Notes: generated by a model from the sequence alone, not told the origin. DNA of 64,000 nt from Flavobacteriaceae bacterium (GCA_018402385.1 JAGYJA010000005.1:1-64000); one strand, 5' to 3'. Counted from the stretch's first letter, positions 47,264 through 60,829 are shown. A program made the numbers and translations.

Positions 47264-47362
47264 TTCGTCTGGTATAATGACGAAAATTACAATATTTTAG
47301 GGGAATATAGAAAAACTTTTATGTAACAAAAAAATGTATCTTAGACTTACTTAAAAAAATGT

Positions 47363-47860
47363 ATGGATATTTTATTAGTTAGCATTGGTTTTATTTTAAT
47401 GCTCGTGGGTATTCTGGGAAGTGTGCTTCCTGTTTTACCGGGAGTGCCCATAAGCTGGTTGGGCTTGTTGATGATTTATCTGGCACCTTCAGTGCCTATG
47501 GATTGGGTTTTTTTGAGTATCACGCTGGTATTGGCAATTTTTCTATATGTCTTGGATTATATTATTCCGGCTATTGGAACTAAACGTTTTGGAGGTAGTC
47601 GTTATGGAATGATAGGGGCAACCCTTGGACTTGTTATTGGGATCATTGCCCCCATCCCTTTTGGAATAATTATAGGTCCGTTTGCTGGGGCCTATTTAGG
47701 AGAACTCTTAAGTGTGAAAACCCGGCACAACGCTATGAGGGCTGCTTTTGGTTCGTTTGTGGGGTTTTTGGCCTCTACTTTTATGAAGCTTTTTGCTTCT
47801 TTTGTTTATTTGGGCTTGTTTATCTATAAAGTCTGGGCTTATAGTGATAAACTTTTTTAA
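47363..47860 (+). CDS. DUF456-family membrane protein
   Basis: ILGSVLPVLPGVPISWLGLL opening typical of DUF456; 4 TM segments. Confidence 0.55.
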   Translation: MDILLVSIGFILMLVGILGSVLPVLPGVPISWLGLLMIYLAPSVPMDWVFLSITLVLAIFLYVLDYIIPAIGTKRFGGSRYGMIGATLGLVIGIIAPIPFGIIIGPFAGAYLGELLSVKTRHNAMRAAFGSFVGFLASTFMKLFASFVYLGLFIYKVWAYSDKLF

Positions 47861-48411
47861 AGCCAAATGGTTTTATTCTCTATACTGCTTTTGCGAAATC
47901 CTTCCGGCAACTCCTCCTCATAATACCCCATATAGAAAAATCCGAGACAGGTTTCGCCTGGAGCGAAATCAAAAAATTCGTGCATATGTTTGATCAATCC
48001 CGGCGAACTCCAATAGGCCCCAATGTTCATTTCAGTACACAGCAACCACATATTTTGAACTGCCATAGCAGTGGCTGCAATTTCTTCCCATTCTGGAACT
48101 GATTCTTTGGGATCGCGTTGCATGCAAATCGCGATAATGCAGGCAGCTTTCGTGGGGTTTTCTTTGAGCTTGTCGTATTGAAAATCAGAAAATTTATCAG
48201 TTGTCTCCTTAAATTTTTCAGCTAAAAATTCACCTAATTTTACTAAACTCTTTCCTTGAAGCACTTTAAACCGCCAGGGTTCGGTGCGTTTGTGAGTAGG
48301 AGCCCAGTTGGCTGCTTCCAGAACTTGAAGGATGTTTTCTTTTGAAATGGGTTTTTGGTTGTATTGTGCCGGAAATACTGCACGCCGTTTTTTAATTGTT
48401 TCGAATATCAT
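47857..48411 (-). CDS. Nitroreductase-family protein
   Basis: AANWAPTHKRTEPWRFKV nitroreductase N-terminal motif. Confidence 0.7.
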   Translation of the reverse strand: MIFETIKKRRAVFPAQYNQKPISKENILQVLEAANWAPTHKRTEPWRFKVLQGKSLVKLGEFLAEKFKETTDKFSDFQYDKLKENPTKAACIIAICMQRDPKESVPEWEEIAATAMAVQNMWLLCTEMNIGAYWSSPGLIKHMHEFFDFAPGETCLGFFYMGYYEEELPEGFRKSSIENKTIWL

Positions 48412-48559
48412 CAGAATTGGGTTTTAATTGCTAAAGTTATTAAAAAACAAAAGGAGGAGTTTAAAATAATACTTATTTTTAGTTACAAGAAATTTTCAAA
48501 ACTAACTGATGCTTAAAAGGTTCTTTACTTACACTTTTAACAAAACCACTTAAGACCCA

Positions 48560-49816
48560 ATGAAAGACCACTACATACTCCTGGCAAGTTTGGGTTTTGC
48601 TACCCTTTTAATGGCTTGGCTTCCGTCTATTTCTGAAAAAATTAAAGTGAGTTCACCGGTTATTTTATTGCCCATAGGTATTTTACTTTATTTGGTGGAT
48701 GTTCCTCTGGGTTGGACAGAATTGTTATGGAGTGATAACGCTATGATGATTTTTTCTGAAGCCATCGTGATTATTTCATTAATGGGAGCGGGATTAAAAA
48801 TAGGAAGCAATTATAGTTTCAAAGCCTGGAAGCGGCCGTTGTTATTGATAGCCATCACGATGCCTTTGACGATGCTTTCAGCTTATTTGCTGGGGGTTTA
48901 TTTTTTAACGCTCAGCATACCGGCATCGCTTTTACTGGCTGCTGTTTTAGCTCCCACAGATCCGGTGTTGGCTTCTGATGTGCAATTGGACGACCCGGAC
49001 AGAGAGGATAAACTGAAGGATAAAATCAGATTTTCACTCACTGCAGAAGCGGGCTTAAACGACGGTATGGCCTTCCCATTTACATTTCTTGCGGTTATGG
49101 TTGTTCAGGCCGGCAGTTTTGCTGCTTTTAGTTTTAGTGATTGGTTTTGGGACAAATTGCTTCTTAAAATTGCAATAGGTGTTGCTGTGGGGATTTTGAT
49201 TGGGAGGTTGATTGGCTATGTCCTTACGCACCTAAAGAAATGGAAAGGAATCAAAACCTATGATGGTTTTTTGGCACTCTCTTTAACCTTTGCCGTTTAC
49301 GGGTTAAGTGAGTTGGTTCATGGGTATGGGTTTATAGCAGTGTTTTTTACCGGGTTGAGTATTCGTTATTCTGAAAATGTTAGTGGGAGTTACAAAAAGA
49401 AAATTCACGACTTTAGTCATGAGATTGAAAGGCTCCTAATCGTAGTTTGGATCATTCTTTTTGGAGGAACAATCATGAACGGAATTTTAGAAATGACAGA
49501 CTGGAAAGGCATTCTTTTTAGTGCTGCTTTTGTTTTAATTGTAAGGCCTTTAGCAGGAATGATTGCTTTAATTGGTATCAAAGACTCTATTAAAAACAAA
49601 CTTGCCATCAGTTTTTTAGGAATCAGGGGAGTGGGTACTATATTTTACCTTTCGTGGGCTTTTATGCAAACCGAACTTTTTGAAAATAAATATGAGCTCT
49701 ATTCCATCGCGGCTTATATTATATTGTTCTCCATCGTTTTACACGGAGTTACCGCGCCTTCAATCATTCGGTACTTTAGAAAAAACCCGAAGCGGCATGG
49801 GTTGGATGATGTTTAA
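48560..49816 (+). CDS. Cation:proton antiporter (CPA1 Na+/H+ exchanger family)
   Basis: 418 aa, ~12 TM segments, AGLNDGMAFPF motif. Confidence 0.8.
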   Translation: MKDHYILLASLGFATLLMAWLPSISEKIKVSSPVILLPIGILLYLVDVPLGWTELLWSDNAMMIFSEAIVIISLMGAGLKIGSNYSFKAWKRPLLLIAITMPLTMLSAYLLGVYFLTLSIPASLLLAAVLAPTDPVLASDVQLDDPDREDKLKDKIRFSLTAEAGLNDGMAFPFTFLAVMVVQAGSFAAFSFSDWFWDKLLLKIAIGVAVGILIGRLIGYVLTHLKKWKGIKTYDGFLALSLTFAVYGLSELVHGYGFIAVFFTGLSIRYSENVSGSYKKKIHDFSHEIERLLIVVWIILFGGTIMNGILEMTDWKGILFSAAFVLIVRPLAGMIALIGIKDSIKNKLAISFLGIRGVGTIFYLSWAFMQTELFENKYELYSIAAYIILFSIVLHGVTAPSIIRYFRKNPKRHGLDDV

Positions 49817-49884
49817 AAAGTGGATGTATTCCTAAGTGTACACCTAAAACCATCCAAAACTTACTATTTAGCAATCTGCCTTAA

Positions 49885-49953
49885 AACAAAAAAAGCTCTA
49901 CGCACAAAGGCGAAAAGCTTCTCATCGGCTCTATCCCCAAGTTTACTTGGGGA
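49885..49953 (-). repeat. Degenerate copy A of the tRNA-Asp 3'-flank/terminator module
   Basis: AAACAAAAAAAGCTCTACGCACAAAGGCGAAAAGCTTCTCATCGGCTCTA..CCCCAAGTTTACTTGGGGA, ~90% identical over ~69 nt to copies B and C. Confidence 0.7.
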
Positions 49954-50012
49954 CCTTTCCGCCTTCCTTCGAACAATTGAACCTTTTCATTAACGTTCAC
50001 AAGATTACTTGG

Positions 50013-50032
50013 TGTGACAGGCAGGAATTCTA
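50013..50032 (-). pseudogene. tRNA-Asp remnant (anticodon-arm fragment)
   Basis: GTGACAGGCAGGAATTCTA matches 19/20 nt of the intact tRNA-Asp anticodon-stem/D-arm segment; the rest is unrecognisable. Confidence 0.5.
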
Positions 50033-50296
50033 TTATTTTTTAAGAATGTTTTTAGGCGACTTAATAAGTTGTTGGATTTGAGAATGGCTATATTTTTTTA
50101 AAACTTTTTCTCTTATTAATGCTAGTTTTTTTGTTTCAAGGCATTCAATATATATTAATTCCCAAGGCCCTTTGTTCTTGGTATAGTTGCTCTCGTTTTT
50201 ATTGTGGGAGATTATCCTTTTATATGGGTCTGTTGAATACCCCCTATAATATTTAGAAGAATTTTGACTAAAAATTATGTAAACGTAGTGTTCCAT
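50033..50296 (-). CDS. Small GIY-YIG nuclease-family protein
   Basis: YVYIIFSQNSSKYYRGYS...R...E (GIY-x10-YRG); 87 aa. Confidence 0.7.
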   Translation of the reverse strand: MEHYVYIIFSQNSSKYYRGYSTDPYKRIISHNKNESNYTKNKGPWELIYIECLETKKLALIREKVLKKYSHSQIQQLIKSPKNILKK

Positions 50297-50309
50297 TCGG
50301 AACTAATTT

Positions 50310-50441
50310 AAACAAAAAAAGCTCTACGCACAAAGGCGAAAAGCTTCTCATCGGCTCTACTACAAGCCTTTCCCCAAGTTTACTTGGGGACAACACAACA
50401 TCTTGACGGCTACTGAGCGTAGTCGAAGTATGCGGTCTGGA
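50310..50441 (-). repeat. Copy B of the tRNA-Asp 3'-flank/terminator module plus 9-nt tRNA 3' stub (island distal junction)
   Basis: 131/132 nt identical to copy C except CAAAGG versus AATAAT. Ends in CGGTCTGGA, the reverse complement of tRNA 3' end TCCAGACCG. Confidence 0.8.
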
Positions 50442-50448
50442 AGTTTCT

Positions 50449-50906
50449 GTAGCTGAGATATATTCAGCTAACAGATTTCCTTCTAAATCAAATTGGAGCA
50501 CTGGTTTTTTTCTGTTATCCTCTACTTTGTAATTCAAATACAGTTTAAAACTCCAAAAGAAGTCTTTACAACTTTTGTTTTTTCCCAAACAAGTATTGCT
50601 TATGGTTTTTTTATCTGCATTGACTGCATTGGCTACACTTTCTAGGGAATCATACTCAGAAACTAAGTTTTCATCTAAATCATACTGATAGACTGATTTT
50701 TTGAACCCTCCACCAACATCCCTGTTATATCCTTCTTCCTTACTGTTGTATTTAAAAATATACTCCTTTTCTTTTTCAGCTAAGTTCAAACGATTTTTTA
50801 GTTCTTCTTCAAACTGATGATCTCTGACTTGTTTTAATATATCAGCATAACCTGCTTCATCAACCTTAAAGGCCTTATTACAATTAGGGCGAATAATTTC
50901 ATTCAT
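50449..50906 (-). pseudogene. NUMOD1-repeat DNA-binding protein, 3' end truncated by the island boundary
   Basis: Two NUMOD1-like repeats (VYQYDLDENLVSEYDSLESVANAVNADKKTISNTCLGK; VLQFDLEGNLLAEYIS). The ORF has no stop of its own and reads through repeat copy B to 50268. Confidence 0.45.
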
Positions 50907-51106
50907 TTCATTATCTTTTAGTTAGTTACTTTCAATCTACCACAACATAAAATAATCATCAAGTTCAGCTTATTATAGTTGTTGCTTTCTTGTCTAATTT
51001 TGTTAATTAATAGCCAATCAAATATAAAAACTACAGCTATGATTTATAGTCTAACCTCCGAGTTGTTTTTGGATTAAAAAGTATATTAAATCTAAAAGTT
51101 TTTTCT

Positions 51107-51547
51107 TCAATCGATAATCATTAGAAATTCTTCTGGATGGCTAAGATAGTGGTCTATTTCTTTTAATTGATGAATTTTACTTTTCAGCCCAATGAGCTCA
51201 TGTAAAAACGCATTTTCAGCTTTTAAACTTGAATGATGCATTAGTTGTATGGTATGCATGCCCCTTTTTTCGTAGTGTAAACAAACTGCCTTATTCTCAT
51301 TGATTTTTTCTAAAAAAGCATCAATAGTTCTGGTATTAAACGTGCTTTTAATTGCATTGAATTGTTTTATTAAATGGGCTATGCGCTTTTTTCTTGAGTT
51401 GATGCCTTGTTTAAAATACCATGACTGCCCATCAGGATCTTCAAGCTTTCGTTTTAAGATGGCATACTCCATGAGAAGGCCAGCCAAACTCGAATGGTTT
51501 TGCTTTTTTACAAATAAGGCTTCTAACTTTTTAGCATCTAAAGGCAT
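51107..51547 (-). CDS. Hypothetical protein (island)
   Basis: 146-aa ORF predicted helical; no recognised domain. Confidence 0.3.
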   Translation of the reverse strand: MPLDAKKLEALFVKKQNHSSLAGLLMEYAILKRKLEDPDGQSWYFKQGINSRKKRIAHLIKQFNAIKSTFNTRTIDAFLEKINENKAVCLHYEKRGMHTIQLMHHSSLKAENAFLHELIGLKSKIHQLKEIDHYLSHPEEFLMIID

Positions 51548-51675
51548 GTTTGTGTCGTTTATATTTTACTTGAAAATGTACTACAAAAACATAAAATTGT
51601 AAAAGGTGAGATTAACATATTAAAATTTCGGGTAACAGCGTCTTAATAAAAGCTGCTATAAGTTCAAATACTATT

Positions 51676-52440
51676 TTAAGATTTTGTTAAATACTTGTTT
51701 TTAAGATGTTTATCCCTATAGTCTAGGAGGTTATCAATTTTTTCTTTCCAGTTTGTTGGTAAGCTTGGCTCTTTCCATTCAATGTCATTATACCATTCAG
51801 GTGCAAATAAGTTGTTAGATTCACCTATTCCTATTAAATTATTACCATATAAATTTAAATGACGTTTATAGAAACATTTTTTAACGTTTATCATTTGGTC
51901 AGTTGGTTTGGCAAAACCCTTAGGAATTAATACAACATTAGATGCAGACGTAAAAAGAGAATATGGTTTGGTAGAATGATCAAAATTCTCAAAGACTTCC
52001 TTTTCTAAATCTCTTTCACTTTCCTTGTGACCAAACACATGTGCTAACTCAAAATAATTCAAACCACTTTGTATCCAACTACCACTAGAATAAGTCTTAT
52101 TTAGAGACAAATAAGTCCATAAATGCCTTGGATAAGTATTATCATTAAAAATTGTTCCGTCTTTTTCATAAATATTATTTTTCCATCTTTTTAGATGTTT
52201 TTTTTCAATATTAATAGGTCTTCGAATCCCTGGAAATATACAATCTGAGCCTTCGTAAAAAAAATCATCAAAATTCAATTTTGGGTGACAAAACCCCTTA
52301 AAGCTTTCTTTAAAGTCAATATTTCTTTCTGAAATATATTTTACAATTTCAGGGTGTATATGATGTGTGACTAGACCTAATATTATTGCTAATTCCCTTT
52401 CAACTTCTTCAGACTTATTTTCAAATTTAAAATTTTCCAT
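51676..52440 (-). CDS. Hypothetical protein (island; 8 bp downstream of the DUF2779 gene)
   Basis: 254-aa ORF with HxxxH-like ELAHVFGH segment; no family recognised. Confidence 0.3.
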   Translation of the reverse strand: MENFKFENKSEEVERELAIILGLVTHHIHPEIVKYISERNIDFKESFKGFCHPKLNFDDFFYEGSDCIFPGIRRPINIEKKHLKRWKNNIYEKDGTIFNDNTYPRHLWTYLSLNKTYSSGSWIQSGLNYFELAHVFGHKESERDLEKEVFENFDHSTKPYSLFTSASNVVLIPKGFAKPTDQMINVKKCFYKRHLNLYGNNLIGIGESNNLFAPEWYNDIEWKEPSLPTNWKEKIDNLLDYRDKHLKNKYLTKS

Positions 52441-52447
52441 ATTTATT

Positions 52448-54433
52448 TTATTCTATTATTTCTTTCAAATGCTCAAACACCATCACCATTGCTAAGGTAT
52501 CTAACTCACAATACTTCAATAGGGCATCGCGCAGCTTACCTCTTTCTAAATCGCTCATATCAGTATATTGGGTTAACCCGTAAGCGGTTAAAGCGGCACC
52601 ACCATTATTGATTTCTTCAATATCACTTTTACGCTCAAAATCCGGATCCCAATCTTTAAACGGTTTATCTAAAGATTTATAAGGATCTTCTATTTCACCG
52701 TCTTTTATACGCAACCACTCGTGATCACTCGGAAAATTCTCACTCGTCATATTAATGTCTGCAATCGGTTGACTGTACTTTTCTTTGATGAATTCAGAAG
52801 TTTTGAAAATAGCCGGCAAAATAGCCTTAATGGAATTACTCCCTTTGGTATGTGGGTTGTAGTAATAGGCTTTGATTACTTCACAAAGGTCAATCATGCC
52901 TCTTTCGGGTTGCCAAAGTTCGCCTTTGTAATCCTTGTCCTTTGGTGGCGTGGTCAATGTCTTAATGAAGTTGATTAAGCTTTCTTTATCTGGCTCAGTT
53001 GAAGCTTCCAATTGCCGTTTGACTTGATTTAAGGTAGAATTTTCATAGGGCGAAAACTGAAACACAGAACCGTTGTTTAATTCTAAGGCTGCTTTTAGTG
53101 CTCTTATAAACTCAAAATTGGGGAACTCACCGGGGTTCACATTAATAAATTCTTTAGCGTGTTCTATACGTCCATCTTCATGGTAGATATGGTGAGAAAA
53201 TTGAAATACTACTTTTTCATAAGGATGCTGACCTTTATAAAAAGGGAGAGCCACTGTAGAAGCTTCAAAGTCAATAAAATTATAAGGCGGTGTCCAAGAA
53301 GCCATTTCACTTTTCAATTCTTGATCTAAAATTTCAAAAGTGAAATTATCAGGGTCTAATGCTTTCTGTTTTTGTAAAATTTGCCTTTCGTAAAGCGACC
53401 AACCATTCAAAACCTGTTTTGATTCACTTTTTGGTTGTAATTGTTCATCATTTATGTCTTCTAATTTTAGGACATTAAATTCATTGAATCCTCTAAGTTT
53501 GGTGTGATGCAGCTTTGAGATTTCAAAAGCATTTGGTGCTTTAAAATCTTCTTCTTTCCAACCTAATTGCTTTTGAAAACATTCTTCAAAGCCTGATTTT
53601 TTATCTTTTGAGGCTGCATCTGTTTTAAACTCACAATGCTTGCATTTTCCAAAGTTGAGGGGATAACCAAAATAGCGGTCTTCTAGATAGGCTTTAGATA
53701 AGACTTCAATAGCATCTTCAAATTCATAATCTCCTAAAATGCGATGTTCTCCTGTTTCAATTTTAGTAATGATCTCCGAGACATCTTTAAGGGATAAGAC
53801 CGAGTCTTCTGGTAGGTTTAACTGAGCTAATTGGTCTTTCTTTATATATATTCCAGTCCTACTATTACTGTTCTTTTTAATTCGAAACATTTGGTTTAAT
53901 CCATCTACAGATGCTGTTTTAAGTTGGTCGGCTAGCATTAAGTAGGGCTTGACACTAAATTGTGGATGTGCTTTTTCTATAACGTATTTTTGAAAAGCCA
54001 CATCAAACAAATACAAACTCCAATCAGAGTTATATTTCACATCCTTCTTCTTATCCCCTTCTTTAAATGACTTGGCCTTCACTTCAATTAAATTGATGTG
54101 ATTGCCTTTTTTCTCTAAAATATCAACACGGATAAACAAATTATTGTATTTAAAAGCAGCCTCATAAATCACTACATTCTCCTTTTGCAGTTGTTCATTC
54201 GTTTCAGCTACTTTTTGTTCATAATCATAATGGGCAGATTTATCATCATCAACTAAATAACCACCAGGGTAATGCATACGTGCTAATTCTTCTACCTGAA
54301 AGCCGCCTTTAGCCAAAGCTTCTAAAAACGGATTATTGTTTTTTTGATTAGCATAGTCATCTTTCTTGGTGTAAAACAATTTATTAGGGCATTCAAGGCC
54401 TAATTTAAAATATGATTTGGTTAAGTATCTCAT
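52448..54433 (-). CDS. DUF2779-family predicted nuclease: N-terminal PD-(D/E)xK (RecB/Cas4-like) domain plus C-terminal RNase-H-like/DEDDy-like domain
   Basis: MRYLTKSYFKLGLECPNKLFY start; FIRVDIL...NLIEVKAK (D...ExK); later FIDFEAS (DxE) and KYCELDTLAM (YxxxD). Confidence 0.5.
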   Translation of the reverse strand: MRYLTKSYFKLGLECPNKLFYTKKDDYANQKNNNPFLEALAKGGFQVEELARMHYPGGYLVDDDKSAHYDYEQKVAETNEQLQKENVVIYEAAFKYNNLFIRVDILEKKGNHINLIEVKAKSFKEGDKKKDVKYNSDWSLYLFDVAFQKYVIEKAHPQFSVKPYLMLADQLKTASVDGLNQMFRIKKNSNSRTGIYIKKDQLAQLNLPEDSVLSLKDVSEIITKIETGEHRILGDYEFEDAIEVLSKAYLEDRYFGYPLNFGKCKHCEFKTDAASKDKKSGFEECFQKQLGWKEEDFKAPNAFEISKLHHTKLRGFNEFNVLKLEDINDEQLQPKSESKQVLNGWSLYERQILQKQKALDPDNFTFEILDQELKSEMASWTPPYNFIDFEASTVALPFYKGQHPYEKVVFQFSHHIYHEDGRIEHAKEFINVNPGEFPNFEFIRALKAALELNNGSVFQFSPYENSTLNQVKRQLEASTEPDKESLINFIKTLTTPPKDKDYKGELWQPERGMIDLCEVIKAYYYNPHTKGSNSIKAILPAIFKTSEFIKEKYSQPIADINMTSENFPSDHEWLRIKDGEIEDPYKSLDKPFKDWDPDFERKSDIEEINNGGAALTAYGLTQYTDMSDLERGKLRDALLKYCELDTLAMVMVFEHLKEIIE

Positions 54434-54463
54434 GCTTGCAGCTTAAAATTTATTTCAGATGTA

Positions 54464-54943
54464 TTATCCATTTAGTTTAAAATAATCTAAAATGGCTTCC
54501 CAATTCGGGTAGTTATTGAATTTGTTATTGATGTAATCCCAACCAAAATGAAGGTGCGTTCCCTTAAAATTGCCTGCGCCGTTAGCTGTTCTATCATCGA
54601 TTAAATAGTCGCCAATCAGTAAATCCTTTCTGTGCGTAATAATCAATTTCTTATGAAAAATGTCCCCAAAATGTTCTTCAATCCAGTTGCGCTTGTGCAT
54701 CCATGCGGTAGGATTGTCCCAGGGTGCTGTAGTTAAAACAAATAGGTCGTATGTATTGGATAAATACAGTTTACGAATAGCTTCTTTTGCACCTGGAACT
54801 ACTTCCAAATTTGCAAAAATGCCATGAATATTGTCAGGATTATCTTTATACTTTAAATAATCTGACTTAGGATGAGTCTTAATCGCCTTTGAAAAATCAG
54901 CTAGGACTCCATCCATATCAATGTAAATAATCGGTTGATTCAT
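54464..54943 (-). CDS. HAD-superfamily 5'(3')-deoxyribonucleotidase (NT5C-like)
   Basis: IYIDMDGVLADF HAD motif I; 159 aa typical of NT5C. Confidence 0.65.
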   Translation of the reverse strand: MNQPIIYIDMDGVLADFSKAIKTHPKSDYLKYKDNPDNIHGIFANLEVVPGAKEAIRKLYLSNTYDLFVLTTAPWDNPTAWMHKRNWIEEHFGDIFHKKLIITHRKDLLIGDYLIDDRTANGAGNFKGTHLHFGWDYINNKFNNYPNWEAILDYFKLNG

Positions 54944-55466
54944 TTACTATTAGTGGTTAAACTTTTAGAGGGCTTTTATAAAATGAAATAATACACTATC
55001 CATAAAACCCACTTATCTTATTAAGATTTTCACTTAAACCTTCTACTGTGTACTTGGTGTAATCTCTTGCCATGTTAAATTAAATTTTAGTTCTATATGT
55101 TAAATTTTATAATTGAAATTTCAATATGCTTTTGTCACTTTTAGGATAATAAAATTGGTAATTTTACAAACTATTGAATGTAAGAATTAGTTTTTTTTGG
55201 TAAAATGGGTTATTAAACTGAAAAAACTATTTTTATTAAGATGTTATTTATTGTTATGTAGAAATAATAATAAAACTCTTGAATTTACGAATAGAGTTTA
55301 CTTAAGAAAAGCAGCTATTTTAGAATCTCTAAACGATATACTTTAAATCTTTAAAGATTAAAATCCAATGATTTTAAATAAAACTTAAAAAGATATTGGA
55401 AGCTTATAAAACAATTGTTTACCTTATAAATAATCTATTTTTATATTTTTGTAAAAAAAACAATTA

Positions 55467-56597
55467 ATGATTTTTAAACAACTACTTTTAAGTTTAATAC
55501 TTTCTACACAGATTTCACCAAAAGTTTTTTTAGACGACAACGGAATTACCATAAGATGTAATACAAATGCTAAGGTAGGTGAAACTTATAATTTTAATGG
55601 AACACCTTATTTAATAGTTGACAATGAGCTATTAAAAAAATTAGTGAAAAACAAAGAGCCTCTAGAAAATGTTGTCACTACTTTTGTTACAGATATGAGC
55701 TACCTTTTTTATAAAAACAAAAATTTTAACGATAATATAAGCCATTGGGATGTTTCTAATGTTACCACTATGAGCTGGATGTTTGGTTTTTGCGAAGAAT
55801 TTAATGGGGATATAAGTAATTGGAATACTGAAAATGTAGAGTTTTTTAACGACATGTTTCATGGTACAAAAAATTTTAATGCAGACTTATCTAAGTGGAA
55901 TGTTAGTAAGGGTATACTATTTAATGGTATGTTTTTTGAAAGTTTTTTTAATAATGACATTAATTCTTGGGATGTTTCTAATGCTACTAATTTGAGTGGT
56001 ATGTTTGATAATGCTTTGGACTTTAATAAACCCTTATCTAATTGGGATGTTTCTAATGTTAAATTAATGGGAGGTATGTTTGCTGAAGCCATTAAATTTA
56101 ATCAAGATATAAGCATGTGGGATGTAGGTAAAGTTACTGATATGACAAACATGTTTAGAAATGCTGTTAAATTTGAATACGATTTATCATCTTGGTCACC
56201 AAGAATTTACATTACTCCAAAAAATTTTAATTTCAATAGCCCTGTTATAGGACCAGAGTTTAAAAAATCTACAAATATTTATTTACCTTCAATTATAACA
56301 GCAATATTTTTTACTCTAATTTATTTTTATAAAGTTTATCGTTTTAAGAGAAAAGAGGAATTTAAAGAGTATAATACCATTGTTAAGAAACTGATAAATA
56401 ACAAAAAAATTAATAATCATCACTTAACAAAAAGCGATTTGGATGAAATATTTGCCCTAACGCATTTAGAATATGAAAAACAAAAAGCCAAAAGATCTTC
56501 TTTAATTAAAGAGATTAATAATTACAAACCTGGATTAATTGATAGGGTGAGAGATCCAGAAGACAAACGCTCTTTTTTATATAAAATAAATTCTTAA
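55467..56597 (+). CDS. DUF285 / 26-residue-repeat surface protein (BspA-like) with C-terminal TM anchor
   Basis: About 8 tandem repeats of the form FNxDISxWDVSNVTxMxxMF, then a TM helix (IITAIFFTLIYFY) and a basic tail. Confidence 0.6.
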   Translation: MIFKQLLLSLILSTQISPKVFLDDNGITIRCNTNAKVGETYNFNGTPYLIVDNELLKKLVKNKEPLENVVTTFVTDMSYLFYKNKNFNDNISHWDVSNVTTMSWMFGFCEEFNGDISNWNTENVEFFNDMFHGTKNFNADLSKWNVSKGILFNGMFFESFFNNDINSWDVSNATNLSGMFDNALDFNKPLSNWDVSNVKLMGGMFAEAIKFNQDISMWDVGKVTDMTNMFRNAVKFEYDLSSWSPRIYITPKNFNFNSPVIGPEFKKSTNIYLPSIITAIFFTLIYFYKVYRFKRKEEFKEYNTIVKKLINNKKINNHHLTKSDLDEIFALTHLEYEKQKAKRSSLIKEINNYKPGLIDRVRDPEDKRSFLYKINS

Positions 56598-56971
56598 ACA
56601 TACAAAATAAAAATTCTAATAGTAATTGAACTAGATTAGGAATAGTAAGTTTTTAAGGTAAAATACCTTTAATATCCACCTCTATTTACATTCAAAACTC
56701 TTGCTGGATAGGGCGGACAAAGTGAGCATCAGTAAATTATCAATAAATCTTTCTATTGCAATAGTTTACTGTCGTAAACCACATGGCTCAAATTATCCGC
56801 TGCGAGTAGTTAGGTTATCCACCCCATCCAATTGTAAGCTTACCTACCTAATCAGAAATCTTATTGGATTAAACTCCTTTGATAAGATTCCCCTTCTTTT
56901 CTTATCATACAGATTTCCTTTTGTAAAGAAAATCGATTTTTTTATACATAATGAATTTTTTATATGATAAA

Positions 56972-57018
56972 ACATATAATATGAATTTAAATGACCTAAA
57001 TATATGTTTTTACATATA
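56972..57018 (+). promoter_or_regulatory. Two tandem palindromes TATATG-N6-CATATA (putative HipB operators) upstream of the HTH gene
   Basis: 56972-56989 TATATGATAAAACATATA and 57001-57018 TATATGTTTTTACATATA, centres ~29 bp apart, 40-90 bp before the HTH start. Confidence 0.45.
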
Positions 57019-57058
57019 ATTTTATATATTTGTATTTAATTATATTTTTAAGCATATA

Positions 57059-57268
57059 ATGAGTGGTTTATCAGAATTTGTAAAGCAACGTAGAAAAAGT
57101 GTCAATCTCACCCAAGAGGAATTTGCCGAACGTGCCGGTGTGGCACTGACCGTTATACGTAAGATTGAACAGGGAAAGACCAACCTGAACATGGAAAAGG
57201 TAAATCTGGTATTGAACATGTTCGGACATGAACTGGCTCCCGTTCAGATAAAAAGACAGGATAAATGA
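57059..57268 (+). CDS. XRE-family HTH regulator (HipB-like)
   Basis: 69-aa ORF with an HTH segment LTQEEFAERAGVALTVIRKIEQGK. Confidence 0.75.
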   Translation: MSGLSEFVKQRRKSVNLTQEEFAERAGVALTVIRKIEQGKTNLNMEKVNLVLNMFGHELAPVQIKRQDK

Positions 57269-57600
57269 GACAGGGCCTTGTATATTATAACGACCATTTG
57301 GCTGGAACCATCACAGAAACAAATGATGGAGAATACATCTTTCAGTATGATGATAAGTATGTTGAGCAATATCCTAATGACTTTATCACCTTTACCATGC
57401 CCGTAGCCCATACTCCCTATAAAGACAAACGACTGTTCCCTTTTTTTGAGGGTCTTATACCTGAGGGCTGGCTGTTGAACATAGCCTCTGAAAACTGGAA
57501 AATAAACCGAAATGACCGCATGGGACTTTTATTGGCATGTTGCCATAATTGTATTGGTGCGGTGAGTGTTGAACCTATAATCAAGGAGAATGAAAGGTAA
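57265..57600 (+). CDS. HipA N-terminal subdomain protein (HipS-like)
   Basis: 111-aa ORF with a HipA_N pattern (LVYYNDHLAGTI...FQYDDKY...LFPFFEGLIPEGW); overlaps both neighbours. Confidence 0.7.
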   Translation: MRQGLVYYNDHLAGTITETNDGEYIFQYDDKYVEQYPNDFITFTMPVAHTPYKDKRLFPFFEGLIPEGWLLNIASENWKINRNDRMGLLLACCHNCIGAVSVEPIIKENER

Positions 57601-58531
57601 GTGCTTATATTGTTATGGTGAGACAACCGGTGGAAAGGACTTTCACGATAAGTGCTCTATGGCGTTTTTTGGGTCCACAAGTCCCCCAACAATAGATTAC
57701 TCCTTGAACCAAATGGACGAATTGGCCAAGAGCGTTGTGGAGCGCAGTGTTGCCGTTCCCGGTGTGCAACCCAAGCTGTCCATGTCACTAATAAAGGAAA
57801 CACGGGAAAAGGCCGACACAAGACTCACCGTGATTGGTGCGTTGGGCGGTGAGTTCATTCTAAAACCACCATCGGAGCTTTATCCTGAAATGCCAGAGAA
57901 CGAACACCTGACCATGAAAATAGCGGAACGCTTGGGAATAAAGACTGTTCCCTGTTCCCTTATCAGATTGGCATCAGGTGAACTCTCATATATTACAAAG
58001 CGGATTGACAGAACGCCTGATGGTAAAAAGGTCCATATGTTGGATATGTTCCAAATAACGGAGGCCTTTGACAAATACAAAAGTTCGATGGAAAAAATAG
58101 GCAAGGCCATCGACCTATACTCCAGTAATACGCTCCTAGACAAAGTCCTGTATTTTGAATTGGTCGTTTTTTCATTCATTACCGGTAACAATGATATGCA
58201 CCTGAAGAACTTTTCCTTGATAAAAGACCCTGTTGGCTGGACTTTGTCCCCTGCTTATGATTTACTGAACGCATCCATTGCGAATCCGGATGATGATGAA
58301 GAGCTTGCCCTAACACTTAACGGTAAAAAAAGAAAATTAAGGTCTGATGATTTTGTTGCTTTGGGCAAGGGAATGGAGCTATCGAACAAGCAGATAAAAG
58401 GGGCTTTCAAAAGAACCGTTGATAAGTTAGCTGTAATAACAGAATGGATAGATAAATCCTTCTTGTCGGCAGACATGAAAGGAAAATATAAAGAAATTAT
58501 ATCCTCAAGAACCAAGGCAATAGGGTTGTAA
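57590..58531 (+). CDS. HipA-like Ser/Thr kinase core (HipT-like) with N-terminal CxxC...H..C motif
   Basis: 313-aa ORF with VPGVQPKLS and DMHLKNFSL (HipA catalytic-loop type) motifs. Its ATG lies 10 nt before the upstream stop. Confidence 0.7.
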   Translation: MKGKCLYCYGETTGGKDFHDKCSMAFFGSTSPPTIDYSLNQMDELAKSVVERSVAVPGVQPKLSMSLIKETREKADTRLTVIGALGGEFILKPPSELYPEMPENEHLTMKIAERLGIKTVPCSLIRLASGELSYITKRIDRTPDGKKVHMLDMFQITEAFDKYKSSMEKIGKAIDLYSSNTLLDKVLYFELVVFSFITGNNDMHLKNFSLIKDPVGWTLSPAYDLLNASIANPDDDEELALTLNGKKRKLRSDDFVALGKGMELSNKQIKGAFKRTVDKLAVITEWIDKSFLSADMKGKYKEIISSRTKAIGL

Positions 58532-58558
58532 AACAACAATATATCTCTACCTACTGAT

Positions 58559-59485
58559 TTAACTTAGCAATGGGTTATCCCACCGCATAAACCAATTCAA
58601 AATAATCGTTCCGTTTGATATTGTCAAACACTTCCAGCCCGGTCCTATTGTTGAACAGGTCTCCAAAGTTCTCGGCGAGCATCTCCCAGCCCTGCATCCC
58701 GACCTCGTAAGAATTCGGAAGAGGTCTGATAGTATGTTTTTTTCATGCAAAAAAACGATTTCTTTTTTACCTGTTTTATTTTTAAAAGCCAAAAAGGGAT
58801 CTTTACCTAAGTATTCATTAACAATGACATATTTAATCACCTTTCTAAAGCGTTGAATTACCTTATTAATGGTACTTTGCTGAAAGCTTTTTTCAGTTAC
58901 CAAGTAGTATTGTAAATCATCTAAAAATGAACCTTTAAGTTGTTTTAATAAGATATCTGAGGTTTTAAATTTCCACTTGATAAAGCTTTCAATGTGAGTG
59001 TAAGTTTCTAAGTATTTACTGTATGTGACCTGTTGAATTTCTTTACCTACAAGGTTTTTGATGTGTTCGTTGTGTAAGTTGAAGGTAGCAAGAACTCCCA
59101 TTTCTTCAGTAGTACTTTCTCCTTTGTATTTAGAGAGGATATCAACAATTGTAAAGGAAGCTCCGGCTAGTTTTAATTTAAGGTAAGAATCTTGAAGCTT
59201 TTGCCTGATTAATGTGATGTTGTCATTAATATAATCACTGTCTTCTTGGTCTTTCGCAAACTGGCTATTAATATCCCAGTTTTCAGGTTTAATAAAGAGT
59301 CCTGTTGAGAATTCCTTAATATTTCTATCAACAGTAATTCTACAACGAATGGGGCACTTGCCAGATTTGTTGATTTTGGATTTTTGAATGACATACAAAA
59401 TTCCTAATGTGCTACTTTTCATACTTTTAGGTGTTAGAAAAGTGGGGCACTCGAAAATATTTTGGGGCACTAAAATGACTCCCAA
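58559..59485 (-). pseudogene. Tyrosine-recombinase/integrase remnant: N-terminal arm/SAM-like domains only, fused to an unrelated GC-rich fragment
   Basis: Bacteroidota-type integrase N-terminus (KSGKCPIRCRITVDRNIKEFSTG...). The catalytic domain is absent. The last ~60 codons are GC-rich and unrelated; the alternate frame ends ...NRTGLEVFDNIKRNDYFELVYAVG*. Confidence 0.55.
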
Positions 59486-59532
59486 AATTTATAAAAACCA
59501 TCCAAAACTTGCTTTCTAGCAGAAATGACTAT

Positions 59533-59664
59533 AAACAAAAAAAGCTCTACGCAATAATGCGAAAAGCTTCTCATCGGCTCTACTACAAGCCTTTCCCCAA
59601 GTTTACTTGGGGACAACACAACATCTTGACGGCTACTGAGCGTAGTCGAAGTATGCGGTCTGGA
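59533..59664 (-). repeat. Copy C of the 3'-flank/terminator module (native downstream region of the intact tRNA-Asp)
   Basis: CCCCAAGT-TT-ACTTGGGG perfect hairpin; AGCTTTTCGC..GCGTAGAGCT stem followed by T7 on the tRNA strand. Confidence 0.8.
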
Positions 59665-59729
59665 CGGGACTCGAACCCGCGACCCCCTGCGTGACAGGCA
59701 GGTATTCTAACCAACTGAACTACCAGACC
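59656..59729 (-). tRNA. tRNA-Asp (anticodon GTC)
   Basis: GGTCTGGTAGTTCAGTTGGTTAGAATACCTGCCTGTCACGCAGGGGGTCGCGGGTTCGAGTCCCGTCCAGACCG; cloverleaf with 7-bp acceptor stem and GTC anticodon; CCA not encoded. Confidence 0.9.
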
Positions 59730-59841
59730 AAAATAAATTTTAAATTCTGACAACAGTCAGATACAACCCAGGTTGCTTTATTTTGCACTTTTTTGAACGT
59801 TTCCATCTGAATAAATCAGAGGGATTGCTTATTAGCGAGGG

Positions 59842-59872
59842 CAAATATACACCCTATTTTAGTTTACACAAA
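59842..59872 (-). promoter_or_regulatory. Bacteroidota sigma-A promoter (-33 TTTG / 19 bp / -7 TATATTTG) upstream of tRNA-Asp
   Basis: Minus strand reads aaattgTTTGtgtaaactaaaatagggtgTATATTTGccctcgc. Confidence 0.5.
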
Positions 59873-59899
59873 CAATTTTTAAAAAAAAAGATACAATCT

Positions 59900-60829
59900 T
59901 TAAGTGAACTTTTGTCTTTCAATCAAATAGGTGGTTAAAATCTTTGAAAAGCCTTCATTGATATCGGCTTCTACATACTTGATGCGGTATTGTGCGCATT
60001 TGAGCTTAAGTTCTTTGAAATAAGACGAAACGGCCTTTTCATAATTATCTTTTACCGTGTCAGGATATATATTAATAAAATCGCCGGTTTCCACGTCAAC
60101 AAACCTTCTGGGCTTGTTGTCATAATCAAAACTAAGCTCTTTACTTTTATCAATGGTGTGGAAAAGAATTACTTCGTGCTTGTTGTACTTCAAATGCTGT
60201 AATGCTTCAAAAAGCTTTTCCTCTTCCAGGCTGTCCTGAAACATATCTGAAAACAAAAACACGAGCGAACGACGTTTCATTTTTTCAGCAATGAGATGCA
60301 GAAATTGATAGGTTTCGGTTTTTTTGTCTTTTGATTTTGTGGTGACGGCTTCGTTGAGTTTGTCAAGTAACATCTGGTGATGGCGTTCACTTCCTTTTTC
60401 TGGTGCATAAAACTCATATTCATCAGAATAAATACTAAGACCCACGGCATCACGTTGCCTTTTGAGCAAGTTCATCACTGCAGCTGCGGCTAAAGCCGAA
60501 AATGCAATTTTATTTAAAGAATTGATATGGAATTCCTTTTTTTCAGGATAGTGCATCGAGGTGGAATTGTCCATGATGAGGTGGCAACGCAGGTTGGTTT
60601 CCTCTTCATACCGCTTGGTAAAAAGCTTGTCTGTTTTTGCATAAAGTTTCCAGTCGATGTGTTTTGTGCTTTCACCGGAATTATACACTTTATGTTCTGC
60701 AAATTCTGAAGAAAACCCGTGAAACGGACTCTTGTGCAAACCCGAAATAAACCCTTCCACCACTTGTGTGGCGAGGAGTTCCAGGTTTTTAAAGCCTGTT
60801 ATTTCGTTGATTTGACTTTGAATATCCAT
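59900..60829 (-). CDS. DUF58-domain protein (vWA-like, MoxR-associated family)
   Basis: SPFHGFSSEFAEHKVYNSGESTKHIDWK typical DUF58 N-terminal motif. Confidence 0.7.
   Translation of the reverse strand: MDIQSQINEITGFKNLELLATQVVEGFISGLHKSPFHGFSSEFAEHKVYNSGESTKHIDWKLYAKTDKLFTKRYEEETNLRCHLIMDNSTSMHYPEKKEFHINSLNKIAFSALAAAAVMNLLKRQRDAVGLSIYSDEYEFYAPEKGSERHHQMLLDKLNEAVTTKSKDKKTETYQFLHLIAEKMKRRSLVFLFSDMFQDSLEEEKLFEALQHLKYNKHEVILFHTIDKSKELSFDYDNKPRRFVDVETGDFINIYPDTVKDNYEKAVSSYFKELKLKCAQYRIKYVEADINEGFSKILTTYLIERQKFT

Follow-up and report, generated by a model that had tools for sequence, protein, structure and literature searches.

Tyrosine-integrase islands and ICEs that target tRNA genes, among them the IntDOT-like elements of Bacteroidota with an N-terminal arm-binding domain, are the described systems closest to the locus analysed here. 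In such elements the integrase adjoins the tRNA, the bounding direct repeats include the tRNA 3′ end and an empty site is found in a relative; the GC content is low compared with the flanks, the cargo includes toxin-antitoxin genes and the site is reused by different elements. The anticodon loop is a known integrase crossover site. tRNA 3′ external transcribed spacer RNAs are trailer-derived small RNAs. Small GIY-YIG proteins of the UPF0213/YhbQ type are represented by PDB entries 1ywl and 1zg2, both of which were deposited as hypothetical. The free-standing GIY-YIG homing endonuclease SegB of phage T4/T6, encoded in a tRNA gene cluster, cuts inside tRNA genes and, via homologous recombination, drives tandem amplification of a segment with tRNA and truncated segB (PMC13096335).

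We analysed a 64,000-nt stretch of DNA from a Flavobacteriaceae bacterium (GCA_018402385.1 JAGYJA010000005.1:1-64000), hereafter the window, in which a structured trailer of ~125 nt, termed T, lies 3′ of tRNA-Asp(GTC) and recurs in copies named A, B and C (Table 1). All of the island features listed above were found at this locus or its counterparts in related loci (denoted by L numbers). In our judgement, tRNA-Asp is probably an integration hot spot here, and the locus bears the nested scars of three or more events.

Layout of the locus and its 9.1-kb island

A T profile built from 14 variants detected three copies in the window (E=1e-36, 5e-37 and 8e-14) and no fourth site in the 64 kb, and searches with sub-motifs of T gave 3 sites compared with 0 expected from shuffles. 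These searches confirmed the original prediction of a module present in three copies of one orientation, at the positions that it gave or very close to them. Its placement of copy C beside the intact tRNA, of copy B beside a mere tRNA end and of a GIY-YIG gene between A and B was also correct; the tRNA portion left in B is the last 9-10 nt (TCCAGACC-G). ARAGORN found exactly one tRNA-Asp in the window and in each related locus.

Table 1. Positions of the features in the window
Feature	Position	Strand	Basis or remark
Na+/H+ antiporter gene	48560-49816	+	stop codon abuts S_A
S_A, relic of integrase-proximal arm, other subtype	49817-49883	-	GGTGTACA at 49837-49844
Trailer copy A, 3′ part: 3′ half of H3, GAUGAG, terminator with U-tract	49884-49933	-	
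Palindrome TCCCCAAGT-NN-ACTTGGGGA inserted in H3 of copy A, replacing CTTGTAG	49934-49953	.	
Decayed remainder of the pseudo-tRNA and trailer unit	49954-50013	-	alignment A3 with L034, L041
Pseudo-tRNA-Asp remnant: D-arm end, 5′ strand of anticodon stem, loop	50014-50032	-	directly after GIY-YIG stop
GIY-YIG protein, 87 aa, UPF0213 type	50033-50296	-	Pfam PF01541, E=3.8e-16
Trailer copy B (T_B) with last 9-10 nt of tRNA	50310-50441	-	distal att copy of island
Degenerate island body, 9,091 bp	50442-59532	.	missing from otherwise collinear L002
NUMOD1 fragment, broken island ORF separate from GIY-YIG gene	50442-50906		
HipB/HipA-like toxin-antitoxin module, island cargo	57059-58531		Pfam and NCBIfam
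Tyrosine integrase, truncated (Arm-DNA-bind_5 + SAM_5; residues 1-230 of 401)	58733-59422	-	Pfam
S_C, integrase-proximal arm, ~100 nt	59431-59532	-	ends ~10 nt before integrase ATG
Trailer copy C (T_C)	59533-59654	-	joined to intact tRNA; with tRNA end, 59533-59664
tRNA-Asp(GTC), intact, integration target	59655-59729	-	ARAGORN; Rfam RF00005, 69.6 bits

The most informative relative was L002, a near-identical 384-kb TARA metagenomic scaffold that encodes the exact same GIY-YIG protein. Its order is DUF58, tRNA-Asp, copy B, GIY-YIG, remnant, copy A and antiporter, and the junction between the tRNA and copy B is direct. BLAST comparison resolved the window into the L002 arrangement plus 9,091 bp and a 132-bp duplication, with island breakpoints at 50441/50442 and 59532/59533. 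The same unoccupied site, with tRNA-Asp joined straight to copy B, was found in L003, L006 and L028. The empty site in L002 confirmed that an integrative element had struck the locus, as predicted.

One island accounts for copies B and C as its att duplication. They show 3 differences over 132 nt, all of them in the terminator loop (CACAAAGG in B vs CAATAATG in C). Copy B has the loop variant of the empty site and copy C has the other form, which fits a crossover between the tRNA end and the loop. H1 and H2, two hairpin regions of T described below, are identical in B and C even though H2 is hypervariable between strains, which calls for a crossover within T or for gene conversion afterwards. 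In addition, the distal att copy retains 9-10 nt of tRNA in the window vs 22 nt in L044 and L033, so that these lengths do not define the crossover point. Homologous recombination within T may therefore have produced the B/C duplication.

The island has a GC content of 32.6% vs 38-40% in the flanks, and its further cargo includes a DUF285 repeat protein, NT5C and DUF2779 (Pfam, NCBIfam). NCBIfam contained no family for the GIY-YIG protein, the integrase remnant or three island ORFs. The integrase remnant, on the strand of the tRNA and 233 nt away from it, is 89% identical to residues 1-230 of an intact 401-aa homologue (P0018, tblastn). A tblastn search with P0018 found no catalytic domain anywhere in the window. 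Loss of the catalytic half would leave the island stuck, and we regard this island copy as a relic. No relatives of the integrase or its cargo were present among 34 loci compared; the integrase family was reached through protein search alone. Compared with described tRNA-targeting islands and ICEs, the duplicated segment is unusually long at 132 bp, it consists of 9-10 nt of tRNA plus a ~125-nt trailer and terminator that is apparently part of the element, and the integrase is truncated, so that this copy is evidently a fossil.

Structure and linkage of T and S

Read in the tRNA sense, T of copy C consists of H1, the conserved segment AAGAUGUUGUGUUG, H2 (a CCCCAAGU palindrome), H3, GAUGAG and a terminator with U7. 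The fold of the window T (-41 kcal/mol, z=-3.75) supported the hairpin and the terminator stem with U-tract of the original prediction. The H1 region comprises one or two variable hairpins, the unpaired conserved segment has the consensus AAGAWGUUGUGUUG, H2 is a hypervariable perfect hairpin (TCC[...]GGA) and H3 is a small hairpin with a conserved loop (GGCUU-GUAGUA-GAGCC). Because the variable hairpins of T are misaligned by MAFFT (A2), T structures were compared by per-sequence folds. All distinct T variants (19/19) folded to the same architecture, with stem sequences that differed in H1, H2, H3 and the terminator. The H2 stem alleles were CCCCAAGU, CCGCC, CCGUC, CCCGAAC, CCCGAU and UUCGUCG, and those of H3 included GAUCU/GGAUC in Paucihalobacter and GAUGGA/UCCAUC in Lacinutrix. 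The predicted folds indicate that T has covarying hairpins and conserved loops.

In an nhmmer search of 629 kb from about 45 loci, T was found solely at tRNA-Asp or remnant-linked sites. A pattern scan of metagenomes gave 8/8 matches linked to tRNA-Asp, and the same pattern had no match in a viral collection. An Rfam 15 scan of positions 49000-60500 at E<=1 returned the tRNA as its sole match, and T has no Rfam family. Three otherwise near-identical loci, L002, L004 and L005, differ in H2 and in the terminator loop, a mosaic that is expected from repeated exchange with island-borne copies.

T could be an island-supplied replacement for the trailer and terminator of the tRNA, which would also insulate the integrase gene from the tRNA promoter; a small RNA or an attenuator is another possible role. 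T resembles tRNA 3′ external transcribed spacer RNAs in its place immediately downstream of a tRNA, in the intrinsic terminator at its end and in the conserved stretches that stay unpaired, here between covarying hairpins. In contrast to them, it had no Rfam match and is linked to an integrase family, not to tRNA as such. No target complementary to the conserved segments GUUGUGUUG and UGUAGUAG was found near the integrase or elsewhere in the window beyond T. A candidate hammerhead ribozyme at CCGAUGAG... was rejected on inspection, since U4 has been substituted and no stem II is followed by GAAA.

S, the segment between T and the integrase, differs between the two ends of the locus. S_C contains two GTGCCCCA direct repeats (59443-59450 and 59463-59470). 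The S next to the antiporter contains 3x GGTGTACA in L002, and the antiporter-side S of both the window and L002 has GGTGTACA-type repeats and no GTGCCCCA. This difference in repeat type points to a second island subtype and hence serial events. Serial integrations at tRNA-Asp, which the original prediction had offered as its alternative, proved to be the better half of its interpretation.

A layout like that of S_C was found upstream of intact integrases in L043-L046 and L048. In L046, the order is tRNA-Asp, a T-like trailer, 3x GGTGCCCCA and the ATG of an integrase (56% identical). Lacinutrix loci L048-51 have, behind DUF58, tRNA-Asp, a T-like trailer, 3x GGTGTMCC and the ATG of an integrase that is 53% identical. 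S lies immediately upstream of the integrase in L043 and L045. A single contig, L044, joins foreign or island distal DNA to 22 nt of the tRNA 3′ end, T, S and an intact integrase, and L033 has the same distal flank; the L044 junction could be attP-like or a tandem junction. The count of TGGGGCAC in the window was weakly above chance (4 observed vs 1.3 expected), and the case for arm sites rests on the conserved position upstream of the integrase in five loci.

Since intact relatives always have the order tRNA-Asp, T, S and integrase, the island family appears to carry T itself. With T and S on the integrase side of the core site, every integration would add a copy of both. Alternatively, T could be native to the chromosome, a trailer within a long region of att identity, as may be suggested by L035, where T occurs without S or integrase. 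A member of the integrase family that is not beside a tRNA (L047, Altibacter) also counts against island-carried T. In island-free relatives (L009, L007, L008 and L027), S was found between T and the antiporter stop codon, and we read it as the stump of an older island. Further traffic at the site was seen in L007/L032, where a different, ICE-like element is joined to 22 nt of the same tRNA, in L029, which has three T copies, and in L008, which has truncated T and S beside a relocated antiporter.

The GIY-YIG gene and the pseudo-tRNA

The GIY-YIG gene begins 13 nt after the U-tract of T_B. Its product matches 1ywl and 1zg2 (E~1e-8) over the whole length, with conserved catalytic residues; Y6, Y16, Y17, R27, H31 and E63 were invariant in 11 sequences. 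The protein is identical in L002-L006 and L028. It consists of the catalytic domain alone; the C-terminal DNA-binding domain (NUMOD or similar) is missing. In contrast to the sequence match, a link of UPF0213/YhbQ-type proteins to tRNA genes had no counterpart in the searched literature, where we found nothing specific on a GIY-YIG/tRNA link in Bacteroidota or on UPF0213/YhbQ function. No relatives of the protein were found in the viral collection. The motif TAGTTC, common to the GIY-YIG leader and the tRNA 5′ part, was attributed to chance, as it is not conserved in L035 or L040.

Orthologues with 59-93% identity occupy the same place in L030, L034, L041, L035/36 (Paucihalobacter) and L040, in the order DUF58, tRNA-Asp, trailer, GIY-YIG, pseudo-tRNA and trailer. 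Wherever a GIY-YIG locus was read in sequence, 0-18 nt separate the U-tract of the tRNA trailer from the start of the gene. A profile search of all fetched loci also identified small GIY-YIG genes directly behind tRNA-Val in three Salegentibacter loci. In one of these, L017, the order is tRNA-Val, terminator, GIY-YIG (35% identical), pseudo-tRNA-Val, the same terminator and a truncated second GIY-YIG start; the pseudo-tRNA-Val begins within the D loop and has TCCCGAU...AUCGGGA in place of its anticodon arm. The expectation that GIY-YIG genes lie between tRNAs thus held to the extent that small GIY-YIG genes adjoin tRNA genes in these Flavobacteriaceae.

Comparison of the tRNA-Asp locus among relatives, a check proposed with the original prediction, gave a single intact tRNA-Asp in each, with the GIY-YIG gene present in some (the window, L002, L030, L034, L035, L040 and L041) and absent in others (L007, L008, L009, L027 and L031). 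L009 and L027 represent the state with neither GIY-YIG gene nor island. Recombination between T_A and T_B would cleanly delete the cassette, giving the L009 state, so this pattern is compatible with either gain or loss of the gene. Presence/absence polymorphism at a fixed site among close relatives is a likeness to Seg/Tev-type homing endonucleases.

On the antiporter side of the GIY-YIG gene, the partial trailer copy predicted at 49885-49953 was present (49884-49954), and its extent had been drawn too short: positions 49884-50032 form one decayed unit of pseudo-tRNA and trailer. The tRNA remnant is real, with a match of 18/19 at 50014-50032, or 18/20 over 50013-50032, in place of the 19/20 originally counted. 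The chance expectation for an 18/19 match was 0.0015 per window, and alignment with the fuller pseudo-tRNAs of L030 and L035 backed the homology. Between the remnant and the recognizable end of copy A, we identified decayed forms of the pseudo-tRNA palindrome (49998-50014), of conserved segment 1, the linker (49974-49987), and of an older H2 allele with AAGG (49954-49973).

The pseudo-tRNAs of L030 and L035 begin within 0-4 nt of the GIY-YIG stop, at tRNA position ~17-21. Their 5′ part consists of TAGAAU with the 5′ strand of the anticodon stem and its loop; in place of the 3′ strand of this stem and the variable loop there is a CCCCAAG...CUUGGGG palindrome. After it come the T arm, which is intact, an insert of 24 nt common to both loci, the acceptor 3′ end and a complete second trailer. 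Both loci share the same two insertions. L040 has two pseudo-tRNAs, one on either side of the GIY-YIG gene, and in L037 the palindrome occurs together with a mini acceptor helix, repeated trailers and a second GIY-YIG start that is truncated. Across about 10 related lineages, the downstream copy was never an intact second tRNA-Asp, and its start was always at ~17-21, flush with the GIY-YIG stop. This constant start, together with the palindrome, indicates that the duplication is part of the GIY-YIG cassette and did not come from decay of a once functional tandem gene. In L019 and L029, a pseudo-tRNA with its anticodon arm substituted is present and a GIY-YIG gene is not, so pseudo-tRNA and gene are not strictly linked.

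The palindrome (CCCCAAGT-NN-ACTTGGGG) was found at three positions: in the anticodon arm of the pseudo-tRNA, in H3 of copy A, and in H2 of B and C. L034 and L041 likewise have it inside H3 in place of CTTGTAG. The CCCCAAGT palindrome in copy A lacks positional homology to that of B and C, and no further site was found in 565 kb. It may have spread by template switching from one palindrome to a neighbouring one, by gene conversion or through some connection with the nuclease.

The resemblance to phage SegB lies in a GIY-YIG gene embedded among tRNA genes and in tandem units of tRNA part, trailer and GIY-YIG with truncated second GIY-YIG starts. The window protein differs from SegB in that it is chromosomal, has 87 aa, is limited to the catalytic domain and is without relatives in the viral collection. 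In addition, the downstream tRNA copies at our loci are disabled, not functional.

Competing readings and proposed history

Three other explanations of the repeated units were weighed. In the first, which we consider unlikely, A and B would be the scar of an ordinary earlier integrase island, with att identity from the D/anticodon arm and the GIY-YIG gene as the passive last gene of its cargo. Integration into a tRNA gene classically leaves a displaced tRNA 3′ part at the distal end of the element, the locus receives several different elements and the junction is at or near the anticodon loop, all of which agree with such a scar. However, the DNA between the repeats is ~280 bp and the same in every lineage, and it starts 0-18 nt past the terminator U-tract and ends 0-4 nt before the pseudo-tRNA. 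An island scar would also leave the same design at tRNA-Val and the tandem units with truncated second GIY-YIG starts (L017, L037 and L040) to be accounted for, and islands of the studied integrase family do not end in a GIY-YIG gene (L033 and L044).

The original prediction favoured an ancestral array of two or three functional tRNA-Asp genes with trailers and a GIY-YIG gene in the spacer, one copy having been hit by an island and another having eroded. In favour of an array is L029, where tRNA-Asp and T are followed, 200 nt on, by a nearly full-length tRNA-Asp copy (positions 6-76) and another T. Tandem tRNA-Val pairs are also common in the Salegentibacter loci, and the downstream copy in L030 and L035 retains the T arm and acceptor end. 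Nevertheless, the island alone explains B and C, the empty site being a single tRNA with B attached, and ARAGORN found a second intact tRNA-Asp in no relative, so that a tandem array is not supported. The downstream copy has the same start flush with the GIY-YIG stop although the GIY-YIG proteins are only ~60% identical, and the same two insertions in L030 and L035 are not expected from independent erosion of a functional gene. We consider the array improbable. The supposed erosion of another copy was right insofar as copy A is an eroded tRNA part and trailer behind the GIY-YIG gene, and wrong in taking it for a decayed functional tandem gene.

A dispersed REP/MITE-like repeat, present here by chance, could account for GC-rich palindromes in an AT-rich spacer and for the three positions of the CCCCAAGT palindrome within units, but it has next to no probability given the sole linkage of T to tRNA-Asp in the 629 kb (three copies in the window) and in the metagenome matches, the confinement of the palindrome in the 565 kb and the fact that single-copy relatives exist (L009 and L027) yet the module is never dispersed, so that the objection foreseen in the original prediction fails.

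We therefore return to the hot spot with nested scars and propose the following history. The latest event, which we regard as demonstrated, was the entry of an island of the IntDOT-like tyrosine-integrase family into the 3′ end of tRNA-Asp. The fixed left end of this family would consist of the tRNA-Asp 3′ end, T, S (2-3 direct arm-type repeats) and the integrase. Integration would have placed a new T with its S (copy C) next to the tRNA, shifting the resident T (copy B) 9.2 kb away, and the island has since lost the catalytic half of its integrase. At an earlier stage, a UPF0213 GIY-YIG gene, a 5′-truncated pseudo-tRNA-Asp and a trailer came to lie directly behind tRNA-Asp and T, which puts T on both sides of the GIY-YIG gene (B and A). 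This arrangement is seen directly; it could have arisen by recombination of a small element carrying the tRNA 3′ part, trailer and GIY-YIG gene, or by nuclease-stimulated segmental duplication as for phage SegB. Both the pseudo-tRNA and the 5′ part of T_A have decayed in the window lineage. The oldest event would be recorded in the S relic by the antiporter, presumably the stump of a still earlier island with the other repeat subtype.

A further reading, speculative and in our view rather unlikely, is that the GIY-YIG gene, hairpin-substituted pseudo-tRNA and trailer form a selfish tRNA-linked cassette of Flavobacteriaceae. The nuclease may break DNA at or near tRNA genes or at the cognate palindrome CCCCAAG..CTTGGGG, and repair of the break may duplicate the tRNA 3′ part with the trailer. 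If this is true, the cassette would be the chromosomal counterpart of SegB-driven segmental amplification and would explain the three positions of the palindrome (anticodon arm, H2 and H3), and the orphan UPF0213 family would gain a function. A separate and likewise rather unlikely possibility is that T acts as a regulatory RNA encoded by the island and gates read-through from the tRNA promoter into the integrase gene.

The repeated flanks at this tRNA gene are an ordinary footprint of integrative elements and should not be taken for a tRNA gene array. According to the searched libraries, a structured, att-linked trailer carried by an integrase family appears to be new, and so, as far as the same libraries show, is the recurrent unit of UPF0213 GIY-YIG gene, pseudo-tRNA and palindrome. 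Islands of a family specific to tRNA-Asp apparently supply the target tRNA with a structured trailer and terminator of their own, and T is a candidate RNA element with covarying hairpins and with loop and linker sequences conserved across genera. UPF0213 GIY-YIG genes recur right behind tRNA terminators and are followed by a palindrome-bearing pseudo-tRNA. This pattern provides a testable lead on the targets of the nucleases, for which the nearest precedent is the SegB amplification described in 2026 (PMC13096335).

Island cargo and the integrase truncation

The island, a 9.1-kb insertion in the window, encodes an integrase that ends after residue 230. Separate ORFs for HipB-like and HipA-like proteins occupy exactly the place where its catalytic domain would be expected, and the integrase was therefore probably replaced or truncated by this toxin-antitoxin module. 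The island also carries the gene of a surface-repeat protein, which contains internal repeats with a 75-nt period (repeat family D2). At the distal end, a fragment of NUMOD1, a DNA-binding module of homing endonucleases, lies in the N-terminal part of a chimeric ORF, the C-terminal ~57 residues of which are copy B of the trailer (the structured segment 3′ of tRNA-Asp) read as protein.

Features of the window and of related loci (L-numbers)
Feature	Locus	Position	Strand	Remarks
Chimeric ORF, 212 aa	window	50268-50906	minus	NUMOD1 fragment + translated trailer copy B
DUF285 (BspA-like) surface-repeat protein	window	55467-56597	plus	D2 repeats at 55724-56157
HipB-like antitoxin, HipA N-terminal domain protein, HipA-like kinase	window	57059-58531	plus	separate ORFs
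Arm-swapped pseudo-tRNA-Val/pseudo-tRNA-Asp copies	L017	5150-6060		
	L019	14290-14350		
	L029	4960-5020		
Small GIY-YIG gene	L018	7590-8140		
ICE-like element	L007	11470-21254		
Two partial DUF58 matches	L031	10986-14930		single contig

Exchanged hairpins in trailers and pseudo-tRNAs

When copy B of L002, L004 and L005 was compared with copies B and C of the window, the trailer hairpin H2 was hypervariable among otherwise almost identical strains, with entire stems exchanged between an invariant flanking TCC...GGA and invariant adjacent linkers. In disabled copies of tRNA-Val and tRNA-Asp, a TCCCGAU...AUCGGGA hairpin replaces the 17-nt anticodon arm base for base. These arm-swapped pseudo-tRNAs were found in different genera, both with and without a GIY-YIG nuclease gene. 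A more distant GIY-YIG gene (36% identity) in L018 has no adjacent tRNA and lies between directly repeated copies of a segment rich in hairpins (...GAAGATGCTGAAACAAGTTCAGCATGACG).

Other elements at tRNA-Asp and the antiporter neighbourhood

An ICE-like element other than the island of the window abuts the last 22 nt of tRNA-Asp in L007 and L032, and encodes a ParB-like protein, a relaxase-like protein and an SSB. The strain bearing this element has a 96% identical Na+/H+ antiporter. In L031, two partial DUF58 matches adjoin tRNA-Asp and its trailer, which is followed by repeats of a different type (TATTTTACTTTT, TTTTAGTAAAATAAG); this arrangement suggests a further element and a local duplication.

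Upstream of the antiporter gene (window 47300-48560 versus 12010-17570 of L002, a near-identical scaffold with an empty site), the window has no counterpart of the glycosyltransferase gene or of the LysR/Sbt_1 pair present in L002. In P. lacus (L008), the LysR/Sbt_1 pair lies on the opposite side of the antiporter gene, with a truncated copy of the trailer and segment S, which carries arm-like direct repeats, as the boundary. The antiporter gene itself may reside on the remnant of an old island.
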